A DNA stretch of 21,319 nucleotides from Leptolyngbyaceae cyanobacterium (GTDB lineage: Bacteria > Cyanobacteriota > Cyanobacteriia > Phormidesmidales > Phormidesmidaceae). The translations under genes were made by a program, and so were the position numbers. The stretch covers positions 1 to 21,319 of the forward strand of contig JBHJHA010000043.1 of assembly GCA_050331235.1 (NCBI GenBank), given 5' to 3'. Below the pieces are notes generated by a model. It searched no databases, was not told the DNA's origin, and saw nothing but the letters and a program-made list of their open reading frames with translations. Positions 5,802 through 19,640 of this stretch are shown here, one piece after another. Each line of letters begins with the position of its first letter. The first letter of the stretch is position 1.

Positions 5802-6224
5802 TCAGCCCTCAGTGGTTGAGAGATCAGAGCTATCAGACAAAGATTTATCCGTAGCGGCTGTTCCTCCCATTAGCTCAGGATACTTATCAGCCATATACTT
5901 GCTGAGAAAAGTACCCACCAAGGAAAAGACCACAGGTCCTAACAGAAAGCCTAAAATGCCGCTCACCTGAAATCCTGGAACCGCCAGGGACGAAAGCCAG
6001 AAGCAAAGGCCATTTACAACATACGAAAACAGTCCAAATGTCAGCAAATTAACTGGGACTGACAGAGTACTTAAGACGGGCTTGATAAAAGCATTGACAA
6101 CCCCGATGGAAGCAGCTGCGATCGCTGCCGCAGTGATTGTATCAAGCTGTACACCTGGAACAACAATGTCTACAACTAGAAGGCTCAAGGCCGTCACTAA
6201 GCCGGATAAAAGAATTGAAACCAT
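5802..6224 (-). CDS. Phage holin family 4-2 / YvlD (DUF360) membrane protein
   Basis: Four TM segments with GVVNAFIKPVL...PVNLLTFGLFSYVVN...VPGFQV. Confidence 0.92.
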   Translation of the reverse strand: MVSILLSGLVTALSLLVVDIVVPGVQLDTITAAAIAAASIGVVNAFIKPVLSTLSVPVNLLTFGLFSYVVNGLCFWLSSLAVPGFQVSGILGFLLGPVVFSLVGTFLSKYMADKYPELMGGTAATDKSLSDSSDLSTTEG

Positions 6225-6270: not shown

Positions 6271-6314
6271 ACACTAGGATATGCAGCCCCTTATCTCCTC
6301 TACTAAAGGAGATA
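6271..6314 (-). promoter_or_regulatory. Putative activator box plus -10 element of the yvlD-like gene
   Basis: Minus strand: TATCTCC-TT-TAGTAGA (6314-6299), 22 nt, TAGTGT (6276-6271); same geometry as other promoters in the cluster. Confidence 0.5.
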
Positions 6315-6337
6315 TTTTGATTGGTCAATGGGGTGAT

Positions 6338-7360
6338 TCAGATTTCTAATAGTTTGAGAACGGCAAATTCATAATCGTCTAAATAAATAATATTAGAATA
6401 TGTAGATTGCATAATTGTCACTAGTTCTCCTGTGAGATAAGCCTCTGGAACTTTGGGATGAACATAATACTTGCGGCAAGTAGCGGGTCGATTGCCTAAC
6501 TGCCGAGCGGCTATCTCAATGGCTGCTTTGACCTGCTGCTTTCTAAGACTGGTATCAATATGGGTCTCTTGTTCTGCTAATCGCTGAGCGGTCAAAATGG
6601 TGCCCGCCCACGTCCGAAAATCCTTTGCTGTGAAATCGGCTTGGGTAATTAAGCGGAGATAGTCATTAACGTCTTCAGAGTCAACTTTCTGATGATTGCC
6701 GTCATCATCAAGGTATTGAAAGACCCGATATCCCGGAATTTCATAGCAGCGCTTGATGATATTGGCGAGTCGCTGATCAGTCAGGGCTACTTGGTGCTCT
6801 ACGCCACTTTTGCCAGTAAACTCGAAATCAACTTGGTGACCCTCAATTGTGATGTGGCGCGATCGCAATGTCGTCAAACCGTAAGATTGATTGGCTTGGG
6901 CATAAGCCACATTGCCAACGCGAATCAATGTCATCTCTAAAAGTTTAACCACGAGGGCTAATACTTTTTCGCGAGGCAAACCGTCTACCTCAAGGTGACT
7001 ATTGGTTTGTTGGCGAATGCGACTCAGCGCCCTACCGAAGGGGACCAATCGATCAAACTTTGCTTGATTGCGAATTTTCTCCCATTCAGGATGATACCGA
7101 TACTGTTTACGCCCTTTGGCATCTCGTCCAGTTGCTTGTAAATGACCATTTTCATCCGGACAAATCCAAACGTTTTGCCTAGAGGGTGGGATTGCTAACT
7201 GCTCAAAGCGATCGCGCAACTCTTGGTTGTCAATATGCTGGCCATCAAGATCAAGGTAGGTAAATCCGCGGCACCACTTTTTTCGAGTAAAACCAGGTAT
7301 TTGGTCATTCACATAACGCAACCCCGATTGTGCGGCTAGCTGTTTAGCTGACTGCTTCAA
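6338..7360 (-). CDS. Bacterial (poxvirus-like) DNA topoisomerase IB
   Basis: GLRYV, IPP, GHLQATGRDAKGRKQYRYHP; catalytic residues in IRVGN (R), FTGKSG (K), AKDFRTW (R) and LGNRPATCRKYY (N, Tyr). TTG start, with an in-frame TGA five codons upstream. Confidence 0.95.
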   Translation of the reverse strand: MKQSAKQLAAQSGLRYVNDQIPGFTRKKWCRGFTYLDLDGQHIDNQELRDRFEQLAIPPSRQNVWICPDENGHLQATGRDAKGRKQYRYHPEWEKIRNQAKFDRLVPFGRALSRIRQQTNSHLEVDGLPREKVLALVVKLLEMTLIRVGNVAYAQANQSYGLTTLRSRHITIEGHQVDFEFTGKSGVEHQVALTDQRLANIIKRCYEIPGYRVFQYLDDDGNHQKVDSEDVNDYLRLITQADFTAKDFRTWAGTILTAQRLAEQETHIDTSLRKQQVKAAIEIAARQLGNRPATCRKYYVHPKVPEAYLTGELVTIMQSTYSNIIYLDDYEFAVLKLLEI

Positions 7361-7465
7361 AACAACAATTCTTCAAATGATCCTGCTACTTCTATTAAGC
7401 CTGATGAGACTTCTTAACAGACCTATCTGTGGAAGTGACTTAGCTCGACAAACTGCAATCGGTTA

Positions 7466-7509
7466 TACATCTCTAGGAAGATGCTGCGACGGATCTACTC
7501 AGCTAAAGT
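7466..7509 (+). promoter_or_regulatory. Putative activator box plus -10 element of the gene at 7604
   Basis: TACATCT-CT-AGGAAGA (7466-7481), 22 nt, TAAAGT (7504-7509). Confidence 0.5.
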
Positions 7510-7603
7510 TTGCACATGTAGCAATATGCCCACACATCAATTTTTTTAATGCAAGGACATAGGCGCTCGATACAGAAAAAGCATAGATGCCACTCCCCAC
7601 CAG

Positions 7604-8053
7604 ATGTCTAGATCGTCATTAGCCAAATTCCTTAACCCGATCGTTTTTATTATTACTGCCATTTACTTTCTACTGGCTCTATCCATCTTGGTTGTCGGGG
7701 CGTTTGAAGCAAATTTAATCTATGGCTTCAGAAGTGTAGCGGCCTGCCTAATCCCCTTTATTATTCTAATTTTTATCTATGCCTACACGCCACTATCGGA
7801 AAGTGGTCGCCGCAATCCTAACTTTAATTTATTTTTTATTTATGCTGTCTGGACACTAATGCTAATGACATTGAGTGAAATTTGGCAGTTTCAGGCACTT
7901 CCCTTACTAGAACTATTACTAGCTAGCACTTTCGCTTCTATCTTCTGGAGAACGTTGAAACCTTCAAGTTCCTCTCAACTTTACGCCTGCTGTTACGGAA
8001 TTATTGTTGGCGTTTTAGGATATGTCACGGTCTTTGGAACTTCGCCCATTTAA
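7604..8053 (+). CDS. Hypothetical integral membrane protein (about 5 TM)
   Basis: 149-aa ATG ORF with repeated hydrophobic segments; no family recognised. Confidence 0.75.
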   Translation: MSRSSLAKFLNPIVFIITAIYFLLALSILVVGAFEANLIYGFRSVAACLIPFIILIFIYAYTPLSESGRRNPNFNLFFIYAVWTLMLMTLSEIWQFQALPLLELLLASTFASIFWRTLKPSSSSQLYACCYGIIVGVLGYVTVFGTSPI

Positions 8054-8215
8054 CCCTAAAAGGGATAAAGAGTATATAATCTCTTTCACCACACAAAAAA
8101 CTTACTGGCCAGTCACCTATGGGCATTTCAAGTCCATACTTCCGCAACGTTAGCAAACAAAACGGGAAGCAAAGTTATGGCCTTGCCTCCCGAAATAAAA
8201 TGCAAAGCTAAGTTC

Positions 8216-8428
8216 CTAAAGTCCTGGTTGACTAGAGTCGGCATCGAGTTCCCAGCGATTTTCGTCCCTTGCATCAAAGTCTTTCTTAACCGTTACGGGC
8301 TCTTCGACATCAATATCAAGGCCCGCATTATCAGCCAAGCGATCAATGGTGTCTTTCTCCGGCATCGGTTCAGGCTCACCTGCGACTGCTCCCTTACCAT
8401 CAACAAACTGATTATCTTCTGTTGACAT
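8216..8428 (-). CDS. Small acidic protein, DUF6335-like
   Basis: Very acidic 70 aa ending in RDENRWELDADSS, resembling the conserved RD..RWEL..S tail of a cyanobacterial stress-associated family. Confidence 0.7.
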   Translation of the reverse strand: MSTEDNQFVDGKGAVAGEPEPMPEKDTIDRLADNAGLDIDVEEPVTVKKDFDARDENRWELDADSSQPGL

Positions 8429-8454
8429 ACTTTAATTTGTTAAACTTCTCAGTC

Positions 8455-8499
8455 AGAATAGCCTTGAATATAATGAGGAGTCATCCAACGGAGGATACA
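8455..8499 (-). promoter_or_regulatory. Putative activator box plus -10 element of the DUF6335-like gene
   Basis: Minus strand: TGTATCC-TC-CGTTGGA (8499-8484), 23 nt, TATTCT (8460-8455). Confidence 0.45.
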
Positions 8500-8648
8500 G
8501 TCTCTCAAAAGTAGCTTTAATCTTCAGTGCCCTTTCAAAAACTGGGCAAAGGAATAAAGCTGGCGTTGAGACATATTAATCTTGCAGGATAGAATTTGCG
8601 ATTGTTTTCCAGACAGTCAAAGCCCACTTGAAATGAATTGTAGAGACT

Positions 8649-8716
8649 TCTACCCGTTGATGGAATTAACTGAACCTCTTTGGACAGATGTTGACCGCAG
8701 CTTTAAGAGGCATGAT
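8649..8716 (+). promoter_or_regulatory. Two putative activator boxes plus -10 element of yqaE
   Basis: TCTACCC-GT-TGATGGA (8649-8664) and AACCTCT-TT-GGACAGA (8673-8688), then 22 nt, CATGAT (8711-8716). Confidence 0.45.
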
Positions 8717-8744
8717 CAGAACAAACAATAAACGGTTTCTTGAT

Positions 8745-8903
8745 ATGGATATCTTAAGACTGATTGCAGCTGTTCTGCTTCCCCCGCTGGGCGTTTTTTT
8801 ACAGGTTGGTTTGACTGCACAATTTTGGATTAATGTTCTGTTAACGCTGCTCGGATATGTTCCAGGTATCATCCATGCAGTCTGGATTATTCTCAAGCGA
8901 TAG
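8745..8903 (+). CDS. yqaE: YqaE/Pmp3 family membrane proteolipid
   Basis: MDILRLIAAVLLPPLGVFLQVG...FWINVLLTLLGYVPGIIHAVW is the classic Pmp3 signature; start moved to the ATG at 8745 (52 aa). Confidence 0.95.
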   Translation: MDILRLIAAVLLPPLGVFLQVGLTAQFWINVLLTLLGYVPGIIHAVWIILKR

Positions 8904-8926
8904 GTAAGCGACTCAATATTTCACCG

Positions 8927-8968
8927 GATAAGGCTGGCCAGGGAAAGTTTCTCTTGGCCAACCTTATC
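8927..8968 (+). terminator. Hairpin 3' of yqaE
   Basis: Long imperfect stem GATAAGGCTGGCCAGGGA / TCTCTTGGCCAACCTTATC about 23 nt after the stop; weak U-tract. Confidence 0.6.
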
Positions 8969-9137
8969 GTGTTTGCTGCATGGTTTGTGGCTACCCACAT
9001 CAAGAGAGATCAGCTTTCACCTTTCTGGCAATATTTGATGTGAAGCCTGCTCGCTCCTGCTCTATTACTACGCCTTGCCTACGTGCTAAGACTTTCAAGC
9101 GGCGTCAAGCTTTTTCTCTCATCAAGAAATACGTAAA

Positions 9138-9181
9138 TGTACCCCTGGGCTGATGAAATCTTTGCCTGAACATCTAAATAT
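9138..9181 (+). promoter_or_regulatory. Putative activator box plus -10 element of the csbD-like gene
   Basis: TGTACCC-CT-GGGCTGA (9138-9153), 22 nt, AAATAT (9176-9181). Confidence 0.45.
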
Positions 9182-9240
9182 TGAAGAAGTCTGATGCAAT
9201 CCGTTAATTCAGAGCGCATCACTTATTACGGAGATAAATT

Positions 9241-9627
9241 ATGGAATTGAGAGCGATCGCCCGTTCAGTGCAGCGACTTTTCTGTTTTGGCACTAGCGTT
9301 TTCTTGCTTTTTTTCGGCTTCTTTTTTAACTTTGACGAGGCTGCTTTAGCTGGTAATCAAGCTGCCAATGTAGTTCAATCAAGGGCAGCGGAGGAGTTAG
9401 ATAGAGTCGCCGGAGAGGGCACTGCCAATCAGTTAGAAGGTCAAGCCCAAGAAAACCTTGGTCAGATTCAAAAGCAGTTTGACCAAGTCGATGGTGCAGC
9501 CCGGCAGGCCAAAGGGAAAGTGCAAAAAGATATTGGTCGAACTCAGAATGCCGCTGAGGATGCTGCCGACCAAGTCGAAGATGCAAGTGATAGTCTTATC
9601 GATTCTGTCAAAGACTTTTTTGACTAG
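9241..9627 (+). CDS. CsbD-like / LEA-like general stress protein with an N-terminal signal or TM segment
   Basis: GGAG RBS; hydrophobic N-terminus ending AALA; repeated QLEGQAQENLG / QAKGKVQKDIG units typical of CsbD; SVKDFFD tail. Confidence 0.8.
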   Translation: MELRAIARSVQRLFCFGTSVFLLFFGFFFNFDEAALAGNQAANVVQSRAAEELDRVAGEGTANQLEGQAQENLGQIQKQFDQVDGAARQAKGKVQKDIGRTQNAAEDAADQVEDASDSLIDSVKDFFD

Positions 9628-9685
9628 TCATCCGATGAATGAGACTTAAGTTTTGAACTTAGTAAACGTATTGAGAGTAAGCACG

Positions 9686-10036
9686 ATGATTTTTTCCAAC
9701 CTCAACTACCGTCAGTTTGTAAAGGCGGCTGTGGCCTTGTTTGTGTGTACATTACTATTTATCGGTTCGGCCACGTCGGCTTTCGCCATTGGCAGTACTC
9801 CGAGTGATTCTTCCAAGGGAGTGGCAGAACTGAACGATCTCAAAGAAACTTCTAGAAAAGCGGTTAGAGACGAACCCAGAAGTAAAGACGAAGTTAAAGG
9901 TAAAGCACAACGCGGCCCAAATGAAGTGCAAGGGGACGCTGACCTTAACAAAATGAAGAACCCTGGGAATTCTCAGCAGTCGAAAACTGTGGCTGAGCAG
10001 GCAGAGAATGCATTAGAGAACCTTGCTGGTCAATAA
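9686..10036 (+). CDS. Exported hydrophilic stress protein (cyanobacterial low-temperature-induced, Lti-like)
   Basis: Signal peptide ending SAFA, then a charged hydrophilic domain with GPNEVQGDADLNKM; ATG 9686 preferred over TTG 9653. The family name is from recall and tentative. Confidence 0.7.
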   Translation: MIFSNLNYRQFVKAAVALFVCTLLFIGSATSAFAIGSTPSDSSKGVAELNDLKETSRKAVRDEPRSKDEVKGKAQRGPNEVQGDADLNKMKNPGNSQQSKTVAEQAENALENLAGQ

Positions 10037-10061
10037 GCTCTGAACCGATAGGTTGATGGTT

Positions 10062-10090
10062 AAGCAGCTCTAGATATAGGGCTGCTTTTT
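10062..10090 (+). terminator. Rho-independent terminator
   Basis: AAGCAGCTCTA-GATA-TAGGGCTGCTT followed by TTTGTGTGTTTTTT. Confidence 0.85.
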
Positions 10091-10450
10091 GTGTGTTTTT
10101 TTGTAGCTTTCTTGCTAAAGATAAATAGTTTCTGGATTATATTGCGCCAGCTAAGCTGTTGCTGTAGGCCATATTCGAGCGGTGAATCTATGTATTGCTT
10201 ACGGAGTCCTTAGGTTGGCTTCCTGAGTAGAATGCTGTGATCTTGTGGTCTATCCCTCTCTGAGAAGAGGTGGAAATTTATGGGTGTTAACATAGAGGCG
10301 CGGACAAATTAAGGCCGCATCTAATCGATTATCTTGCTTCGGAGTAGATTTCGACTTCTCTGATAAGCTTCGAGGTTGCTACAAGCAATTTCTAAGGGGT
10401 GATCAGTTTGGATACACTACTCACTCTTTAGGAGCTATAAGCCCTATCTA

Positions 10451-10882
10451 ATGCCTACTCATGATTCTTTTCGTAAGCCAAGTATCGAAAGTTTCTATCC
10501 CCAAAAACCGACTGTCGTCAACGTAGATGACGATTCCGACAGTCTTTTATTAGTTAGCTATGTTTTAGAAGCGTTCTCTTGCTCTAGTCTATGTGAAACA
10601 GAGGGGGAATCTGCCTTAAAGTTAATTTCTCGTTTGATTCCTGACTTGATTCTTGTTGACATTCGGTTGCCAAAGCTCAGCGGTTTAGATATCATCCGCA
10701 CGTTGAAAGCGAATCAACCAACGTCAAAGATTCCTGCGATCGCAATTACGGCTGTTCCGGGTGCTGAATATCGTCGTGAAATTTTTCGAGCCGGTTTTGA
10801 CCATTATTTGTGTAAGCCTTACCACTTAGACGACCTCTATGCCGCCATTGGTTGCTATCTCCCTGTTAAGTCCATAGCTTAG
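10451..10882 (+). CDS. Single-domain response regulator (CheY/DivK-like receiver)
   Basis: VDDD acidic pocket, phospho-acceptor Asp in PDLILVDIRLP, SGLD, IAITA and KP motifs. Confidence 0.93.
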   Translation: MPTHDSFRKPSIESFYPQKPTVVNVDDDSDSLLLVSYVLEAFSCSSLCETEGESALKLISRLIPDLILVDIRLPKLSGLDIIRTLKANQPTSKIPAIAITAVPGAEYRREIFRAGFDHYLCKPYHLDDLYAAIGCYLPVKSIA

Positions 10883-10954
10883 AGGGCAAGCCAAAGCAGC
10901 GTCGAGGGTTTTTAATGAGCAGTCCGTGGGCTTGCTTCTAAGCGGCTTGGCTCC

Positions 10955-11368
10955 CTACTCGGCTTTGCCGCCATTGGGCGCAAATGTGGGAACGTTTCCT
11001 AAGATCACAACGATCGCGGTTCTCCCGGTTTCCAGCGTAGTATCGCTCAAAATGTCAACAACGGTTGACGACAACTCTGCCTCAATAACCTCAACTAAAA
11101 GTGGCCTCACTGCGGTATCGAGATCTGCGCGAACTCTTTCTACGTCAGTTTTGACCCCTCCAGCTTGGTCTTTGTCACCCTGGATTAAAAACTTTTCAAC
11201 TTTTGTTAGTGAATCTTCGACAACTAGCATAATTTTGTCGTCGACAATTTGGCAGGCCACCTTTCCCGGAGAGTGTCCCAGCTGATTTTTGTAAACCTTT
11301 TGAATCTTCTGCGATAGCGCTCGCTGGGTTTGACCGCGAGTGGTTGTCAGGGTCGTAGTTGTAGGCAT
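10955..11368 (-). CDS. DUF2294 (MpsC-like) protein
   Basis: TRGQTQRALSQKIQKVYKNQLGHSPGKV...EDSLTKVEKFL...VVDILSDTTLETGRT; ATG at 11368 preferred. Confidence 0.88.
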   Translation of the reverse strand: MPTTTTLTTTRGQTQRALSQKIQKVYKNQLGHSPGKVACQIVDDKIMLVVEDSLTKVEKFLIQGDKDQAGGVKTDVERVRADLDTAVRPLLVEVIEAELSSTVVDILSDTTLETGRTAIVVILGNVPTFAPNGGKAE

Positions 11369-11391
11369 ATAGATAATGAATGTGGGGTTTG

Positions 11392-11437
11392 ACAGCCAGT
11401 TGAGAGTTGCCGAAAAAGCCAAGTCTCAACTGGCTGT
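11392..11437. promoter_or_regulatory. Long stem-loop in the DUF2294 leader
   Basis: Perfect 14-bp inverted repeat ACAGCCAGTTGAGA (11392-11405) / TCTCAACTGGCTGT (11424-11437). Confidence 0.7.
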
Positions 11438-11517
11438 GGCTCATGAAGGAACGTCAGGGGTGGATACCAGATTGTCGATCAAAGCAATCAAGAAGCTGTG
11501 TATCATCAACCATACTT

Positions 11518-11591
11518 ATTTTATTTTTTCTTCACAGCCAGAAAAACGACCAAAAGATGCGTTGATATACGATCTTACATCGGCTGTTAGA
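11518..11591 (-). promoter_or_regulatory. Putative activator boxes plus -10 element of the DUF2294 gene
   Basis: Minus strand: CGCATCT-TT-TGGTCGT (11561-11546), 22 nt, TAAAAT (11523-11518); a second box TACATCG-GC-TGTTAGA on the plus strand at 11576-11591. Confidence 0.45.
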
Positions 11592-11729
11592 TAGAGTTCA
11601 CAATCAACTAATCCGAGCCGCTCTGGACGGTTCATTCCGGCTGGCGGTCTCAGTTGAGCCGACCATTAAAAAATAAAAAGGACTTATTGCTGACAGTCCA
11701 GCGATTGAAGATGGCCACCCGATGACGAC

Positions 11730-11753
11730 TCGCTACGTCATTCGCTACGTCAT
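11730..11753. repeat. Perfect 12-bp tandem duplication
   Basis: TCGCTACGTCAT twice in direct succession. Confidence 0.9.
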
Positions 11754-11776
11754 GATGTTGAGTGCGGTCTTGCCAC

Positions 11777-11808
11777 AAAAAAAGAGCAGCCGATCAACGA
11801 CTGCTCTT
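11777..11808 (-). terminator. Rho-independent terminator of the large repeat-protein gene
   Basis: Minus strand: AAGAGCAGTCG-TTGAT-CGGCTGCTCTT followed by TTTTT, about 17 nt after the stop. Confidence 0.85.
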
Positions 11809-11825
11809 GTGCGGATTTTTTTTAC

Positions 11826-14800
11826 TTAGCTGATGACTGCTAAGCTGCCACCGATCGCGGCGACTATGGCGGAAATGGTTGCCGTTGCGAACAGCCACCA
11901 AGAGGCTGCCTCCGCTGCCTTGCGCATGTCATCGACCTGCTGTTGCGCTTCTTGCTTGAGTACGGTCACCCGCCGCTCTACCTCCTGCTCCAGGCGCTCG
12001 GCTTTTTGTAGAGCACTGTCGCGAGCAGATTCCACTTGGTTGATGACTCGGTGGGCATCCGCTTCAGAGATGGCATCGTGGGAACTGACAATGGCGACCA
12101 GCGTATTGCGATCGCACCGAGCTAAGCGCTGCTTGAGAGCTTCAAAGCCTGATTGCGGATCATCAAATAGAGTCCGCAGGTCGCGACGAATGCCGTCATA
12201 ATCCAGTTCTGGACGTTCAAGGGAATTGAGATATCCCTTAATTCGTGCCAGCAGTCGATCAATCAACGACTGAACGCGTAGTTGCAACTGGTGTAGCTGC
12301 TGCTGAATCTCGTCTCGCACTGACAAAACCTGCTCAACGGTGGCTTCCGCCTCGGCCTGGGTCATGTCGGGGCGCTGGGCCAAGAGTGCCACTACAGTAT
12401 TGCGATCAATTTGGTTGAGCCGTTGCCCCAAACGCTGTGCGCCTAACTGCGGAGAGTTTAACAAGAGACGCAGGTCACGCTTGATGCCCTCGGGGTGCAG
12501 TTCCGCTTTTTGCGTATTGCGCAGATATTCCTCCAAACCTTGCTGAAAGGAGGCGGCCTGTTGTCGAGTCCGACGCGCCAATCGCTGGGGCGCTTTCACA
12601 AGATTGCGAATCGCCTGCTGAATATTGTCAATGATCTCGTTGACTTCAGTGGCGCTCAGATCATCGCGCTGGCTCAAGAGTTGTACAAGCGTATCTCGGT
12701 CCATCGCGGCAAGGCGCGCCCGAATAGCTTCGGCTCCAGCTTGAGGTTGCTCCATCAATAGGCCCAGATCCCGCTGAATGCCCTCAGGATTGAGCTCTGG
12801 CTTGCCGGTACGGCGCAGGTAAGCGGCGATCGCGCTAGTGGCTTCATCCAACTTGGCTTGGGCCTGAGCCGTGAGCTGGGCCGGGGTACCGATCACTTGA
12901 TACCAAGTCGTTTCCACTTCATGCAAAATGCGGCGAATATCGGTCTCACTTAGATCGTCGCGCTGGTTCAGAATCTGTACAAGAGTTTCTCGATCGAACT
13001 GGGCCATGCGCTGTCGCAGACGATGCACGCCGACATTGGGCTCCTTCAGCATCGTCGTTAGATCCCGTTTGATCCCAGCTGGGTCGAGCTCCGAACGTCC
13101 GGTTTGCCGTAGGTAGCTTTGTAGCTGTTGCCAATTTTCTTCAGCCTTAAGTTTCACTTGCTCTTGTAAGCTGTGGGCCTCAGATAGAGTTTGATTTTTT
13201 TGTTGCTCAAAACGGCTCACGAGCAACTGCACTTCCGCCGGATCGAGATCATTGCGCCCGTTCAACGTCTGGGCAAAGAAGTCAGTGTTGATTTCAGAAA
13301 AACGCACCTGGAGATCATCAAAGCTCGCCTCATCATCGGCAATCAAGCTTTGGAAGGCATCTTGTCCCATGTCAGCCAGCAGCTCGGCTTTAGGAGTCTC
13401 CTTTAAGAAGACCGTAACCCGGCTTCGTAATGCCTTAGCGGCTTCAAATCGATCGATATCAATCACTTCACGCAGCACCTGTAGCCGCACAGACTCCAGG
13501 CCAGCAGCCGTTTGCTCAATCTCTGTCGGGGTCAGCAAGCCGCGCCCTGCCAGAATGTTGACAAAATCTGACCGGCTTAACTGTTGGAGTTCCTGACGCA
13601 GCAGGGTCGTACTGGCTTCGGTGTCGTAAATGACATCGCGGAACTGAGCCTCTAACCGTTCTTGCTGTAGCTGCCAGGGAAACGTATTAAGTAGGTAATT
13701 TTCTACATCGGCTCTAACAACGCTGTAACGCTGATTGGCAGCACCTGATGCCGTCAATGGTGAAGGGTTGGAACCAGTCAGTGCTGTTCTGGTCTGATCG
13801 ATCTTGGTGGCGACTTTCTCAACATCAAGGTCAGAGAGATTGACGTTGGCCAGCAGTGCGCCTGAGAGCGTATTTAACCCTTGGGAAATCATGCCTGAGG
13901 ATGACTGCTGTCCCCGACGGCGATACGCGTCTAAAAATTGGTCGAGGCGATCGCCTACTTGCTCCGCTACTCGCTCTTCGGGGCGGGCCGTCCGCAGATA
14001 ATCGGCCAAGTCAGCTAGGGAGCTTTGGCCAGTGGTTTGGCTAATTTCTCGTTGCCAAATGCGATAGAGACGACCGGCAACTCGCTCCACTTCCTGACGC
14101 GACAAATCCGTGCGGCTACTGACCAGATCTTCAAAGGTTTGTTGGTCGAGTTGGGCGAGGCCATCGGCATTGGTCAGCGCCTCCAAATCCGTTGTCTGGA
14201 TTAAGGTTTCAAATTCCCGCTCCAGCTCGGCGGTATCAAGTTGGGGCGATCGCAAGGTCGCGACATAATCCTGCACGGAGTCCAGCAGGTCGCCTTCCCC
14301 AAAGCCTTGGGCAATCTCCTTACGGACGGCCGCTGCAACCGCTTCAGCGGTTTCAAAAACTTGGTTGCTGGCAGCCTTTGCCCCAAATGCCGCCGTGGCG
14401 GTACCCACTAAAGAGTTAAAGCTCGCCGTTGCCGTTCTCACGACGGAGCCGATGAGTGATCCCACCGTGGTGGAACTGACCCAAAACAGTAAGGAAAAAT
14501 AGGTGCCCCAAATCACCAGGCCAGTGATGGCTCCGAGCAAAGCACTGTTGTAAAGACTGAGTTTGACCGCTAACCAGCAGGCAAAAAAGAGTGCCAGGCT
14601 GACCGTGATCAGCGTCCAAATACCCACGGTGACGGTAATGCGGCCAGGGCTTACCCCCCCCGAAGACTTAGACGAAGACGAATGTCCAACATAGGAAATG
14701 CCAGCGGCGATCGACAGATTAGTCAACAGGAGTTGAAATCCGAAGGCCAAGACTAAGCCCGACAGCAGAGCAATAAAAAACTGAGGACCCGAAAATATCA

Positions 14801-14885
14801 GGGCCGCATCTTCGGGAGTTTCAATTCCAGACTGGGGGAGCTGAGCCAGCCAGTGGGCAATTGGACTAGAGAGAAATTCATACAT
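11826..14885 (-). CDS. Large membrane-anchored helical-repeat protein (3 N-terminal TM, about 7 repeats of ~100 aa, 1 C-terminal TM)
   Basis: AAGGA RBS before the ATG at 14885; hydrophobic N- and C-termini; repeats of YLR.T.+.EL.P.GI.RDL...DR.TLV.LL.QR.D[LM]S. Confidence 0.9.
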   Translation of the reverse strand: MYEFLSSPIAHWLAQLPQSGIETPEDAALIFSGPQFFIALLSGLVLAFGFQLLLTNLSIAAGISYVGHSSSSKSSGGVSPGRITVTVGIWTLITVSLALFFACWLAVKLSLYNSALLGAITGLVIWGTYFSLLFWVSSTTVGSLIGSVVRTATASFNSLVGTATAAFGAKAASNQVFETAEAVAAAVRKEIAQGFGEGDLLDSVQDYVATLRSPQLDTAELEREFETLIQTTDLEALTNADGLAQLDQQTFEDLVSSRTDLSRQEVERVAGRLYRIWQREISQTTGQSSLADLADYLRTARPEERVAEQVGDRLDQFLDAYRRRGQQSSSGMISQGLNTLSGALLANVNLSDLDVEKVATKIDQTRTALTGSNPSPLTASGAANQRYSVVRADVENYLLNTFPWQLQQERLEAQFRDVIYDTEASTTLLRQELQQLSRSDFVNILAGRGLLTPTEIEQTAAGLESVRLQVLREVIDIDRFEAAKALRSRVTVFLKETPKAELLADMGQDAFQSLIADDEASFDDLQVRFSEINTDFFAQTLNGRNDLDPAEVQLLVSRFEQQKNQTLSEAHSLQEQVKLKAEENWQQLQSYLRQTGRSELDPAGIKRDLTTMLKEPNVGVHRLRQRMAQFDRETLVQILNQRDDLSETDIRRILHEVETTWYQVIGTPAQLTAQAQAKLDEATSAIAAYLRRTGKPELNPEGIQRDLGLLMEQPQAGAEAIRARLAAMDRDTLVQLLSQRDDLSATEVNEIIDNIQQAIRNLVKAPQRLARRTRQQAASFQQGLEEYLRNTQKAELHPEGIKRDLRLLLNSPQLGAQRLGQRLNQIDRNTVVALLAQRPDMTQAEAEATVEQVLSVRDEIQQQLHQLQLRVQSLIDRLLARIKGYLNSLERPELDYDGIRRDLRTLFDDPQSGFEALKQRLARCDRNTLVAIVSSHDAISEADAHRVINQVESARDSALQKAERLEQEVERRVTVLKQEAQQQVDDMRKAAEAASWWLFATATISAIVAAIGGSLAVIS

Positions 14886-15494
14886 TGGGTATTTCCTTAT
14901 CAAAAAAAGGCCGATAGCAGCTTGAAAAATCTATGGAGGGAATCTGCCTCAAAGCTGGGGCCGGAGCCGGGGATGAGTGCAAATGACTCGCGGCTGGAGC
15001 ACTCGCGAGCGGGCCATCCCCAGAGCCATTACGACCTGCCCGCGCATAGGGACCTCGCCGACGGCCAAGCGCTGGTTTCTGCAACATTTCCATACTCACC
15101 TGAGTGCATGACCGGCCTGGGTCGTTGTGAGTAATCGTGCAACGGATGATGCCTTCTTCTAGTACAGCGGTGATTTACCTAGGATTCATCTGACCTGAGG
15201 CATACCCAAAAGGCATAAATTTTTGCTCACCTGATGGTGTTGGTTAATGGCAGGGACGCTGAAATGCTGTTGTGAGGACCGTTCGTGGCAGCTGGTTCCC
15301 GAGGTGAGGATGGGTAGATTTTGCCGTAGAAACTTAGGAAGGTACTGCCGACTGTGCGATATACAAGCAGAGCTGATTTCCAGGGGCGATGACTCTGCCT
15401 CTGGTCGGCAACACCCCGGCTATCAAGATTATCGATATGATGCTGAGGGCACTCGCGCAAACTCCGGTAGCTGTAATTGTCAGTTGTAATCACT

Positions 15495-16271
15495 ATGACT
15501 TATTGCTTGGGCATCCATGTACGGCAGGGAGTTTTGTTAGCGGCGGACTCTCGGACCAATGCCGGCGTAGACTATATCTCGTCCTATCGGAAGCTATTTG
15601 ACTACTCGGTGCCGGGCGATCGCGCCCTCATTCTTTGCTCATCGGGCAATCTTTCTATTACTCAGGCCGTTTTACATACCCTTGATCGAGACCTGATTAC
15701 CAATACTGAGCCCAATCTGCATACGCTGCCGACCCTGCACGACGTGGCGCGATACATAGGCCACTGCATCCGAAAATTACAAGAAATTGATCGGCCCTGG
15801 CTGCAAAAGGACAACATCGATTTTCAATGCAGCTTTTTACTCGGTGGACAGATTCAGGGAGAAGCCTCCCAGCTATATCTGATTTATAGCCAAGGCAACT
15901 GCATTCGCAGCACCCCCGAAACCCCATTTCTGCAAATCGGTGAAACCAAATACGGCAAACCGATTTTGGACCGCACCCTGACCTACGAATCGCCCTTAGC
16001 AAATGTAGCGAAATTTGCACTGCTGTCCATTGACTCGACGATGCGATCGAACCTGTCCGTTGGTCCGCCGATCAACCTAATCATGTATCACGCCGATAGT
16101 TTCGATATTAGTCACAAGGCGCGCTTTTATGCGGGCGATCCGTATCTGATTAAGATGCGCAAGCATTGGGAAGTCGCGCTCCGAGAAGCAGCGGCCACAA
16201 TGCCCGAAATCGAATGGCACTGTGAAGCTGTGCCCGATGGCCCCGATTTGACCGATATTTCTGAGCCCTAG
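15495..16271 (+). CDS. Anbu proteasome-type Ntn-hydrolase (COG3484)
   Basis: MTYCLGI (Thr1 nucleophile exposed after Met removal), DSRTNAGVD, QIGETKYGKPILDR, DSTMRSNLSVGPP; start moved to the ATG at 15495. Confidence 0.95.
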   Translation: MTYCLGIHVRQGVLLAADSRTNAGVDYISSYRKLFDYSVPGDRALILCSSGNLSITQAVLHTLDRDLITNTEPNLHTLPTLHDVARYIGHCIRKLQEIDRPWLQKDNIDFQCSFLLGGQIQGEASQLYLIYSQGNCIRSTPETPFLQIGETKYGKPILDRTLTYESPLANVAKFALLSIDSTMRSNLSVGPPINLIMYHADSFDISHKARFYAGDPYLIKMRKHWEVALREAAATMPEIEWHCEAVPDGPDLTDISEP

Positions 16272-16300
16272 GGCAACCGGGCACTGGAGACGAAGCACTG

Positions 16301-16314
16301 GTATCCGCTGTTAC
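16301..16314 (+). promoter_or_regulatory. NtcA-binding site
   Basis: GTA-TCCGCTGT-TAC, a perfect GTA-N8-TAC, in the intergenic gap upstream of the ATP-grasp gene; the downstream -10 is imperfect. Confidence 0.6.
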
Positions 16315-16368
16315 GGTTTGTGGTCCTGTTAACCAAGTATGACTGAATCGGTTGCTTGGAGGGAAGAC

Positions 16369-17814
16369 GTGACCCAGTTAGATAGTTATGACCCGGGCGA
16401 CTTTTATGACGAATTATTTGAGTCTCAGGGCACGCCCCGTCCTGCTGCGGCCGAGCTTGTAAAGCGCATCAAATCGCTATCTGTCGAGGAGCTACAGCGT
16501 CGTCAGGAAGCAGCGCAAAATATGCTGTTTAAGATGGGGGTGACGTTTAACGTTTACAGCGATAACCAGGGCACCGAGCGGATTTTTCCGTTTGATGTGA
16601 TTCCCCGGTTTGTGCCCTATCAGGAATGGAAGTGGCTCGAAAGTGGTCTCAAGCAACGCATTGCAGCGCTCAACTGCTTTATCCACGATATTTATAACGA
16701 TCAGAAGATTATTAAAGATCAGGTCATTTCTCGGGCGGCGATCGAGTCTGCGCCGGGCTTTTTGCCGGCCTGTATGGGTTTGCAGCCACCCCAATCGATC
16801 TGGTGTCATATCACCGGCACCGATTTGGTAAAAGACCGTGATGGCCGCTGGTACGTGTTAGAAGATAATCTCCGCTGTCCATCGGGTGTTTCCTATGTGT
16901 TGGAAAACCGGCGCGTGATGAAGAGTTCCTTTCCTACCTTTTTTGATGCCCTCGACATCCAACCCGTCGATGACTATGCTAGCCAGCTTTTGGAAACCCT
17001 GCTCCACCTCGCGCCGGATAATCTCTCCGATCCTTGTGTGGTGGTGCTGAGCCCCGGTATTCATAACTCGGCTTATTTTGAGCATTCCTTTTTGGCGCAG
17101 CAAATGGGTACGGAGCTTGTGGAAGGCCGCGATTTGGTGGTCGCCGATGGCTATTTGCAGATGCGAACCACTAAAGGACTGCGCCGAGTGGATGTCATTT
17201 ATCGCCGGATTGATGATGACTTTCTCGATCCGCAGGCGTTTCGACCCGATTCGATGTTGGGGGTGCCGGGGCTAATGGAGGTCTATCGTAATGGTCGGGT
17301 GGCGATCGCCAATGCGCCCGGCACCGGCGTCGCCGACGATAAGATGATTTACGCCTACGTGCCCGAGATGATCCGCTATTACTTAGACGAAGAGCAAATC
17401 TTGCCCAACGTGCCCACCTATCTTTGCGAAGATGCCCAACAGCGGGAGCATGTGCTGGCCCATCTCGATCAGCTTGTGGTCAAAGCAACCAACGCTTCAG
17501 GCGGCTACGGCATGCTCATGGGGCCCCATGCCACCGATGAGGAACGCACCGCTTTTGCCGAAAAAATTCAGGCCGATCCGCGTAACTATATTGCTCAACC
17601 CACTCTGAGTCTGTCTCGGGTCCCGACGTTAATTGACGGCCAATTTGAGGGCTGTCATGTTGATCTGCGTCCTTTTATTTTGTACGGCCGCGAAATTTAC
17701 GTGAACCCTGGCGGGCTGACCCGAGTCGCCCTCCGGCGGGGGTCATTAGTCGTCAATTCGTCCCAAGGGGGCGGCAGCAAAGATACGTGGGTAGTCAAGG
17801 AGGAGACATGCTAA
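16369..17814 (+). CDS. Circularly permuted type 2 ATP-grasp protein (COG2308)
   Basis: [90 protein letters not shown] at 16369 follows GGAGGG; ATG at 16339 is an alternative start. Confidence 0.96.
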
Positions 17815-18764
17815 GCCGAGTTGCCGACTCGATTTATTGGATGAATCGCTACGTCGAGCGGGCGGAAAATGTCGCCCGTTTTGTCGAGGTCAACTTGAAT
17901 TTGTTGCTCGATGCGCCCCAAGCGGGCGTTGCCCAACAGTGGCAGCCCTTAGTGACTACCACTGGGGATAAAGCCCTGTTCGAGTCTCGCTACGGTCATG
18001 CCAATTCAGAAAATGTTTTGCGGTTTTTGACCTTTGACAGTGCATATCCCAACTCCATTTTGTCTTGTGTCAAGGCAGCTCGCGAAAATGCTCGTTCCGT
18101 TCGCGAGACGATTTCCTCTGAAATGTGGGAACAGGTCAATGCCTTTTATCTTTGGGTTAAAGAGACAGCCACTGCGGAAATTTCGGCGGAACGATTGTAT
18201 AGTTTTTACCCGGAAGTCAAAATGGCCAGCCATCTGTTTGCTGGGGTGACCGATGCCACCATGTCCCACAACGAAGGCTGGCACTTTGGCCGGTTAGGGC
18301 GGTTGCTCGAGCGCGCGGATAAAACGGCGCGGATTCTCGATGTGAAATACTTCATCCTGCTGCCATCGGTCACTGACGTGGGCACGCCGTTAGACGAGCT
18401 CCAGTGGATTGCGTTGCTCAAGTCGGCCAGCGCCTATGAGATGTATCGCAAGCGTCAGCGACGGGTGACGCCTGAGGGGATCACCCGCTTTCTGATTCTC
18501 GATGCCGAGTTTCCCCGGTCAATCCAGTTTTGTTTGTTGCAAGCGGAGCGATCGCTCCATCAAATTACGGGTACGGCGATCGGCAGTTGGTGTAACAATA
18601 GTGAGCGCACCCTGGGACGGCTGCGGTCAGAATTAGAGTATATGACTCTGGAAGAAGTCTTTGATACGGGTTTGCATGAGTTTCTCGACCAGTTGCAAAC
18701 TCGGTTAAACACGGTGGGAGAGCATATCTACCAAGACTTCATGGCCGTTCCCATCGCCAGCTAA
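17808..18764 (+). CDS. Alpha-E domain protein (COG2307)
   Basis: [57 protein letters not shown]; the start overlaps the end of the ATP-grasp gene. Confidence 0.96.
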
Positions 18765-19640
18765 TTGGTACGACCCTTGCGCTATCACATTTCCCATAAG
18801 ACGGTTTATCGTTACGATCAGCCGGTGCGGCTGGGGGTTCACCACTTGCGGTTGCGGCCCCGCAGCGACGGTAGCCAGCATTTGCAGGCCTTTGCTATCA
18901 ACATCCAGCCCCCCCCGGGAACGCAATCTGATCATCTCGATGCCGAAGGCAATGCCTGTCTATCCCTTTGGTTTAGTGATGACTGGACCTCGAAACTGAT
19001 CATCGAGACTACCGCTGAGGTCCAGACCTTTCGCGTCAATCCTTATAACTACTTGAGTGAGCCTTGGGCGATCGCGGCTCCGGTGGACTATCCCCAGAGC
19101 CTCGCTGGGCATTTAGCGCCTTATCTGCGGCCCACCTTAGCGGCAAGCTTTAGCCCCCCTGTCGTTGAATTTGCCCAGTCTTTGCTGAGCTACGTGCAAG
19201 GCAACGTCGGGTTGTTTTTATCACAGCTGACTCAGACCCTGTATGAGGAGTTTGAATATCATCATCGCCCCGAAGGCGCGCCGCAACCGCCCAGCTTAAC
19301 TATGCGCCAAAAAGCGGGCTCCTGTCGCGACTTTGCCATGCTGTTTGTGGAGGCGTGTCAGGCTGTGGGGCTAGCCGCGCGTTTTGTCAGTGGCTACCAG
19401 GAAGGCGACGAAGCCCAACCCCATCGGGAACTCCATGCCTGGCCAGAGGTTTACATTCCTGGGGGCGGATGGCGTGGCTTTGACCCCACCCACGGACTGG
19501 CCGTCGCCGATCGCCACATTCCCTTAGCTGCCGCTGCCCATCCGCAAAATGCTGCCCCCGTCTCAGGGGTCATGAAATTAGGGCAAATTGCCAAAACTAG
19601 CTTGGATTACGTGATTCGCATCCAGCGATCGCCCGATTGA
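18765..19640 (+). CDS. Transglutaminase-like protein (Bact_transglu_N plus core)
   Basis: YHISHKTVYRY...LRLRPR N-terminal domain; catalytic triad in GSCRDFA (C), HAWPEVY (H) and FDPT (D); ARFVSGY. Abuts the alpha-E stop; the exact start codon is uncertain. Confidence 0.95.
   Translation: MVRPLRYHISHKTVYRYDQPVRLGVHHLRLRPRSDGSQHLQAFAINIQPPPGTQSDHLDAEGNACLSLWFSDDWTSKLIIETTAEVQTFRVNPYNYLSEPWAIAAPVDYPQSLAGHLAPYLRPTLAASFSPPVVEFAQSLLSYVQGNVGLFLSQLTQTLYEEFEYHHRPEGAPQPPSLTMRQKAGSCRDFAMLFVEACQAVGLAARFVSGYQEGDEAQPHRELHAWPEVYIPGGGWRGFDPTHGLAVADRHIPLAAAAHPQNAAPVSGVMKLGQIAKTSLDYVIRIQRSPD

Follow-up and report, generated by a model that had tools for sequence, protein, structure and literature searches.

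A 7-2-7 box at a fixed distance from the -10 element in a cyanobacterial stress-gene cluster, the probable site of an OrrA-type activator

Class II sites of Crp, Fnr and NtcA are 5-6-5 dyads centred at -41.5, with half-sites TGTGA, TTGAT or GTA. In E. coli, a 7-2-7 site centred at -43.5 lets NarL activate yeaR by way of the C-terminal domain of the alpha subunit (PMC10853779, part covered). Regrowth after drying requires OrrA, which has hundreds of genes induced by salt or drying under its control (PMC9804601, part covered). Here we describe a box of the 7-2-7 type in a stretch of 21,319 bases (the window), which is the whole of contig C43 (JBHJHA010000043.1) of the 4.8-Mb genome of a Leptolyngbyaceae cyanobacterium. 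Small stress-type genes lie between 5802 and 14885 of the window, and the box had been proposed in an earlier note upstream of seven genes: a yvlD-like gene, the open reading frame (ORF) at 7604, a DUF6335 gene, yqaE/pmp3, a csbD-like gene, a DUF2294/MpsC gene and a large repeat gene. The box is a real feature. To judge from comparisons among genomes, it is probably the site of an OrrA-type activator of the NarL family that would co-activate stress genes under salt or drying stress.

All seven boxes and their -10 hexamers were re-located in the sequence, with spacers of 22, 22, 23, 22, 22, 22 and 22 nucleotides (nt); R2, Y3, Y5, C6, Y7 and G15 are present in all seven sites and GATG in five. 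When each site was left out in turn from an 18-column matrix, the ranks among all upstream regions of the genome were 0.2-4.6% from the top for five of the seven sites, 10% for the DUF6335 site and 53% for the DUF2294 site. The gene calls (4300 genes) came from a simple dicodon model, so the upstream regions are approximate. For an independent matrix, 30 csbD loci were kept and the one from the source genome was excluded from training, which left 29 promoters from 26 genomes. Unseeded expectation-maximization (EM) on these promoters recovered the motif with a log-likelihood of 125, compared to 68-76 in four shuffled sets. The resulting csbD matrix gave 11.5-15.0 for five of the seven window sites, 8.3 for DUF6335 and less than 7 for DUF2294, while 5.1% of 2449 background regions scored at least 10. 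The DUF2294 box, with a left-out rank no better than chance, had been overfitted. Scores of at least 10 with the csbD matrix were also found in other families (avaK 8/23, pmp3 8/25, the large gene 3/11, DUF2294 1/17).

The box and the -10 element were then modelled jointly by EM on 97 promoters of five families (csbD, avaK, pmp3, the large gene and DUF2294) from other genomes, with G002 and G004 removed as near duplicates. The box was seeded from the csbD matrix and the -10 element with a weak T/A/T bias, and the spacer prior was flat from 16 to 29 nt; four of the five training families had been picked for occurring in the window, so the joint model is not fully blind. From the flat prior the model learnt spacers of 22 nt (0.57) and 23 nt (0.36), the same two lengths that had been read by eye. 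The consensus was T1 C2 n n Y5 C6 Y7 n n n G11 R12 n R14 G15 A16 K17 G18, or as a dyad TCnnYCY-NN-nGRnRGA followed by KG, with the pairs T1-A16, C2-G15, Y5-R12 and C6-G11. The KG extension is on the promoter side only, and the first base of the -10 element may also be C or G. The conserved positions given in the earlier note stand in part: R2 and Y3 hold in the window, but in the wider sample position 2 is mostly C (0.53) and Y3 is weak, and a core G11 (0.95) had been overlooked. The 7-2-7 frame was borne out on the 97 promoters, where the best symmetry centre was 8.5 (1.66) and the next 10.5 (1.14); on the seven window sites alone these two centres about tie (21/49 versus 23/49 pairs).

Seven of nine consecutive upstream regions of the cluster scored at least 9 (background 6.8%), the highest count among the genome's 2403 overlapping runs (binomial probability 2e-7, or 5e-4 after multiplying by runs). 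The runner-up runs, with five of nine each, were on contigs C8 (14.5-33 kb) and C46 (15-33 kb), and each has a csbD gene. Enrichment over shuffled DNA was seen in a held-out pmp3 set of 40 further promoters (40 of the 61 listed, two of them without an ORF): in OrrA-positive genomes 18 of 36 scored at least 10, compared to 2.9% of 760 shuffles, and the -10 element was found at spacer 22 in 7 of 16 strong boxes. Outside the window, the source genome has 167 strong boxes, with a -10 element at 22 nt in 18 and at 23 nt in 10, versus a mean of 4.2 at other spacers. A control with 14/15-nt spacers on single promoters gave no discrimination because the box dominates the score. Orthologues of the DUF2294 gene scored at least 10 in 7 of 16 cases with the joint model, which was itself trained on them. 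The csbD upstream regions of loci L037, L060 (G035), L039 (G028) and L042 (G026) have no box and share, by eye, another motif resembling TTTGTATCGTAYTYAATCAATT, which suggests a second putative csbD regulator in some lineages.

The source genome contains 11 GerE-domain and eight Crp-domain matches. Two of the GerE proteins, C5:18875 and C30:33374, belong to one group that is present in 26 of 41 genomes; of 101 genomes sampled from the class, 61 have OrrA-type genes. Primers in supplement 2 of PMC9804601 imply an OrrA peptide LTMDHT; the Nostocales loci contain this peptide and the reverse primer matches Anabaena azotica locus L212 with no mismatch, which identifies the Nostocales OrrA. A kinase-receiver cluster is divergent from the Nostocales orrA loci, as all3767-64 is from orrA in PCC 7120 (PMC12282138, part covered). 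The suspected OrrA-type NarL regulator has two paralogues in the source genome, 61% and 59% identical to L212, whose nearest solved relatives are VraR, NarL and DevR. Their recognition helices differ by one residue, and both could bind the box. The C30 copy is divergent from a receiver-kinase gene. In a row at C5:18875-21481 (L139) lie the other OrrA-type paralogue, an all0458-type dps and a group-2 sigma factor gene, which has a box before it (16.6).

The box also precedes many orrA-type genes themselves: of 80 loci, 47 have one that scores at least 10 within 500 nt and 37 within 250 nt. Two elements are constant in the Nostocales orrA promoters, the hexamer TATCTT and, 23 nt from it, the box TATTTCTATCGGTGGA-TG; the sequence of the spacer varies. 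Induction of orrA in PCC 7120 is 16-fold by salt and 32-fold by drying.

The orthologues of OrrA-dependent genes were examined in five named Nostocales, which stand in for PCC 7120, with a model trained without these promoters and a threshold of 8. The box was found in 31 of 40 such orthologues (avaK 12/16, dps of the all0458 type 5/5 and of the all1173 type 5/5, sucrose synthase 6/11, treZ 3/3), compared to 1 of 27 controls (other dps clades 1/10, bacterioferritin-like 0/5, aroB-like 0/5, other cyclases 0/7); because the five genomes are related and represent about a dozen families, the Fisher probability of 1e-9 overstates the contrast. The 40 exclude an avaK locus without a start and three sucrose-phosphate-synthase-like, five catalase-like and three mysA-like loci. 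When the five loci that we take to be catalase-like and the three that we take to be mysA-like were added as expected positives, the count was 33/48. The dps clades serve as an internal control: in PCC 7120 all0458 is induced 112-fold (OrrA-dependent) and all1173 21-fold, versus 2.4-fold for alr3808 and 0.8-fold for all4145, the genes for which the control clades were taken by synteny and elimination. Among 12 receiver genes of the all3766 type, six had a box of at least 10, with 20.2 for the A. azotica gene; all3766 is induced 26- and 34-fold in an OrrA-dependent manner in PCC 7120, and all3767 is not induced.

OrrA-type genes were also found in or beside a matching stress cluster in G001, G003, G004, G017, G020 and G037, a count that does not extend to 19 further OrrA-positive relatives. 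G003 and G004 share the cluster of the window (pmp3, csbD-like, receiver, DUF2294), and there it contains a hybrid kinase and a regulator of the C30 type with a box, the C30 type being the paralogue inside the matching cluster of close relatives. A strict pattern from the refined model gave 375 matches, versus 62 for its reversed control, in the 61 OrrA-positive genomes, and 81 versus 42 in the 40 others, which may include further OrrA-type genes with split matches. The density was 1.14 per Mb in OrrA-positive genomes compared to 0.61 per Mb in the others, and 1.20 versus 0.50 in held-out genomes of at least 4 Mb. In four OrrA-negative genomes, 19 of the 22 distinct strict matches lay inside ORFs and the other three preceded no gene; in the source genome four of six were intergenic. 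Genome G089, apparently OrrA-negative with a strong pmp3 box, has an OrrA-type gene at C1:382587-383363, where the search match was split in two by a longer linker in the protein. Its strict-box count (18) is the second highest among the 101 genomes. A G+C-rich palindromic repeat TCTCCCnnnnGGGAGAGGGG in G030 (L433, L448) and G079 matches the strict pattern and gives false matches.

Several results weigh against an OrrA-type activator as the factor that reads the box. Half of the pmp3 promoters and 33 of the 80 orrA-type loci have no box, the C30 orrA promoter of the source genome scored only 7.8, and the contig of the window carries no regulator gene. OrrA is reported to bind the mysA and susB promoters of N. 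flagelliforme; in strain FACHB-838, which may not be the strain of those papers, no box was found on the gene's strand before the mysA-like gene, and the three sucrose synthases, any of which may be susB, scored 9.8, 7.6 and -0.1, the last value being the adverse one. None of the three mysA-like loci of the five Nostocales scored at least 8. Probable Mn-catalase promoters did so in only two of five cases, and katA and katB are OrrA-dependent in PCC 7120. The pmp3-like asr3796 of PCC 7120 is not induced. Five probable sigD orthologues (L451-L453, L455, L460) have a conserved variant site, TCTAACTGTAGATACT-TG, scoring 9.3-15.8 with a -10 element at 22 nt, and sigD is OrrA-independent in PCC 7120 (1.4 versus 1.5, 1.2 versus 1.8). 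Another factor may be responsible for variant sites with the ending GT-T or CT-T, a type that includes the weak DUF2294 site. The PCC 7120 array does not separate direct from indirect targets. A first genome-wide pattern showed no contrast between OrrA-positive and OrrA-negative genomes (221 matches versus 135 at the wrong spacer in 26 OrrA-positive genomes, 89 versus 63 in 15 others), and the stricter pattern was picked after this one had failed. The co-occurrence tests overstate, since most of the OrrA-negative genomes are small and related.

Some of these points would fit a different dimeric regulator, one that accompanies OrrA or acts downstream of it, either a further NarL/LuxR protein such as one like NfSrr1 or a Crp/Fnr protein, an explanation we consider unlikely. 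The mysA genes without a box and the variant at the sigD orthologues speak for it, the GerE- and Crp-domain proteins of the genome supply candidates, and NfSrr1 binds the treZ and susB promoters (PMC11962455, part covered). A 5-6-5 dyad of the Crp type, centred at 10.5, was even slightly ahead on the seven window sites; it was rejected on the 97 promoters, where the centre at 8.5 beats it. The motif proposed for NfSrr1, ATMAGTAARCYYAAT, is unlike the box. The box precedes orrA-type genes, which themselves lie inside such clusters, and G089, the sole OrrA-negative genome with a strong pmp3 box, turned out to be OrrA-positive.

We believe it quite improbable that the box is instead the upstream element of an OrrA-induced group-2 sigma factor (SigB2-like), whose region 4 would read GAKG at about -36 to -33, with OrrA acting indirectly. 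The one-sided KG and the tolerance of the -10 element for a C or G as first base are what such a factor could leave behind, orrA-type genes have a group-2 sigma gene next to them downstream in the source genome and in G020, and sigB2 is OrrA-dependent (3.4-fold versus 1.5-fold; PMC12282138, part covered). The orthologues of sigB2 are not assignable with certainty. Against this, the information in the motif reaches about -50 with dyad symmetry, the induction of sigB2 is small beside that of 100-fold targets, and the sigma gene has a box of its own. Region 4 of a sigma factor would not need dyad symmetry out to about -50. A mixed case, an activator together with a sigma contact at KG, may also apply. 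Least probable is that the alignment by eye produced a coincidence, or that the box belongs to a dispersed palindromic repeat with no regulatory role. The motif is degenerate, with 6.8% of upstream regions at 9 or above, the G+C-rich repeat in G030 mimics it, and a hairpin overlaps the yvlD box; unseeded recovery, learnt spacing and held-out enrichment, together with orthologous sites that are conserved despite a variable spacer and non-induced paralogues that lack the box, have already largely refuted this explanation. The 7-2-7 frame, the distance of 22-23 nt to the -10 element and the original guess of an OrrA-type NarL activator all survived the tests on unseen sequence, namely motif recovery, the orrA promoters, the learnt spacer, the cluster density and the held-out pmp3 set.

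With an OrrA-type activator as the reader of the box, a kinase would phosphorylate the regulator; Dsp1 has been proposed as the OrrA kinase in N. flagelliforme (PMC13131328, part covered). The phosphorylated dimer would bind the box, abutting the -35 position, and would recruit RNA polymerase as NarL does at yeaR. Counted from a hexamer that starts at -12, the box would occupy -50 to -35, with its centre at -42.5 for a spacer of 22 nt and at -43.5 for one of 23 nt. Transcription of the seven genes, in their order along the window, would then be predicted to start 34-36 nt beyond the box, at about 6264, 7516, 8448, 8723, 9188, 11511 and 15154. The box before orrA itself would provide positive feedback, boxes before the group-2 sigma gene and before receiver or kinase genes would add further loops, and KG, which has no partner in the dyad, may be where sigma makes contact. 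A canonical sigma-70 scan found 10 sites versus 9.5 expected, none of which is any of the seven box promoters, as expected of activator-dependent promoters.

More broadly, and with considerable doubt, these elements might form a cyanobacterial general-stress cis-code, in which a self-amplifying OrrA would switch csbD, yqaE/pmp3, dps, PfpI and trehalose genes, with KG read by a box-induced group-2 sigma factor. In Bacillus, E. coli and alphaproteobacteria the same genes are under a stress sigma factor. If this is true, the genome of any cyanobacterium with OrrA would suffice to read off its direct drying regulon.

The boxes in the window differ in strength. On the minus strand at 6299-6314, the box before the yvlD-like gene (5802-6224, minus; PF04020, a protein of four transmembrane segments) has its -10 element TAGTGT at 6271-6276 and a joint score of 17.4; a hairpin of eight pairs at 6292-6314, just beyond the end of the topoisomerase IB gene, overlaps this box. 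That gene (6338-7360, minus) encodes an enzyme of the bacterial type (PF01028, PF21338), and a bacterial topoisomerase IB lies in the stress cluster both here and in G004. The box before ORF 7604 (7604-8053, plus; a membrane-like protein of 149 amino acids with no Pfam or NCBIfam family) is at 7466-7481 on the plus strand, with TAAAGT at 7504-7509 (joint score 19.7). On the minus strand this dyad points towards topoisomerase IB (joint score 8.8), and one site may serve two divergent promoters. The DUF6335 gene (8216-8428, minus) is preceded by a box at 8484-8499 on the minus strand with TATTCT at 8455-8460, a spacer of 23 nt and a joint score of 12.7.

For yqaE/pmp3 (8745-8903, plus; a Pmp3/YqaE small membrane protein) the box lies at 8673-8688 on the plus strand with CATGAT at 8711-8716 (joint score 13.2). 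The csbD-like gene, which is followed by a small ORF without a family (together 9241-10036, plus; PF05532 weak and under the cut-off), has a box at 9138-9153 on the plus strand with AAATAT at 9176-9181 (joint score 20.3). Orthologous sites of both are present in G003 and G004. The DUF2294/MpsC gene (10955-11368, minus; PF10057) has a weak box at 11546-11561 on the minus strand (box 5.9, joint 10.9) with a good -10 element, TAAAAT, at 11518-11523. The box at 15189-15204, minus strand, before the large repeat gene (11826-14885, minus) scored 11.6 for the box and 9.5 jointly, with a poor -10 element TGTACT at 15161-15166 that has a negative score in the joint model. The product of this gene, a repeat protein of about 1020 amino acids, has no clear family (a weak Pfam match only), and near-full-length relatives were found in 14 of 40 other genomes, frequently beside stress genes or an OrrA-type gene.

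Six extra copies had also been listed in the earlier note, and two of them, both on the plus strand, are supported. One, near-palindromic, lies at 8649-8664, 24 nt upstream of the yqaE box (box 9.1 on the plus and 11.8 on the minus strand), and could form a tandem site with it. The other, at 10253-10268, is a strong box (csbD matrix 14.2, box 12.5) before a receiver-only gene (10451-10882, plus; PF00072), with no -10 element at 22-23 nt. The four copies at 7422, 9627, 11576 and 15202 were discarded, with joint-model box scores of -8.5 to 4.4. Outside the cluster, a weak site (10.2) at 800-815 on the minus strand precedes a DUF1232 gene. Genes for a proteasome-type protease, a circularly permuted ATP-grasp protein, an alpha-E protein and a transglutaminase lie in a row at 15495-19640 without a box (1.9); an ATP-grasp paralogue on contig C19 has one (17.5).

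In the source genome 75 upstream regions scored at least 12, of which 38 from the top of the ranking were annotated together with two genes beside the C5 regulator. The top matches outside the window precede two csbD genes, MscS, PfpI, a treZ-like and another alpha-amylase-family gene, and receiver and kinase genes; further annotated matches precede a cation-chloride-type permease and two rhodanese genes, and 10 of the annotated genes have no family. A glutamine amidotransferase, an ArsR regulator and binding proteins among the matches are probable false positives.

No OrrA binding motif was found in PMC9804601 from introduction to discussion and in its supplements 1-2, and Ehira 2014, Schwartz 1998 and Shang 2018 could hold one. 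The same is true of the parts covered of PMC13131328, PMC11962455, PMC12157317, PMC7760821, PMC12282138, PMC10853779, PMC4734099 and bioRxiv 10.64898/2026.06.09.731130, while the supplements of PMC13131328 and PMC11962455, as well as Mitschke 2011, could hold one. As those OrrA texts give no binding sequence, direct and indirect targets are indistinguishable in them. A box defined in sequence and spacing opens the direct regulon to testing, widens it beyond the Nostocales and leads one to expect positive autoregulation; it could also serve as a compact part for stress-inducible promoters.

The architecture as such, a 7-2-7 activator site of the NarL type, is already known, and the box shares it with NarL at yeaR. 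Both have a 7-2-7 palindrome directly upstream of the -35 position (predicted here from -10-like hexamers), and NarL and the OrrA-type proteins alike combine a NarL/FixJ-type receiver with a LuxR helix-turn-helix. The half-site here is TCnnYCY and not the NarL heptamer (yeaR site TAACCAATAAATGGTA; PMC10853779, part covered), the box has the additional promoter-side KG, and its genes are stress and not nitrate genes. Neither OrrA-type protein is a NarL orthologue by the equivalog cut-off, which both miss by far (138 and 150 versus 250). Like the box, class II sites of Crp, Fnr and NtcA place a dyad beside the -35 position and keep its distance from the -10 element constant, but the box is best described as a 7-2-7 dyad at a predicted -42.5/-43.5, and in the joint matrix its half-site is not like TGTGA, TTGAT or GTA. 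NfSrr1 of N. flagelliforme is likewise a LuxR-family receiver-helix-turn-helix regulator of desiccation that binds treZ and susB promoters; the motif proposed for it, compared by eye with the joint matrix, is not the box (PMC11962455, part covered).

The closest system is the OrrA (Alr3768) regulon of PCC 7120 and N. flagelliforme (PMC9804601 and PMC13131328, in the parts covered), which was defined by knock-out arrays and promoter binding, with no motif or geometry in those parts. It differs from the case described here in that the source genome has two paralogues and no avaK (DUF2382) match, that csbD, pmp3, yvlD and DUF6335 are unnamed as targets in the passages covered, and that N. flagelliforme mysA has no box in the strain examined. 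The regulators belong to the same family and orthologous group, with 59-61% identity, and the orthologues of avaK, dps, sus, treZ, all3766 and orrA mostly carry the box.

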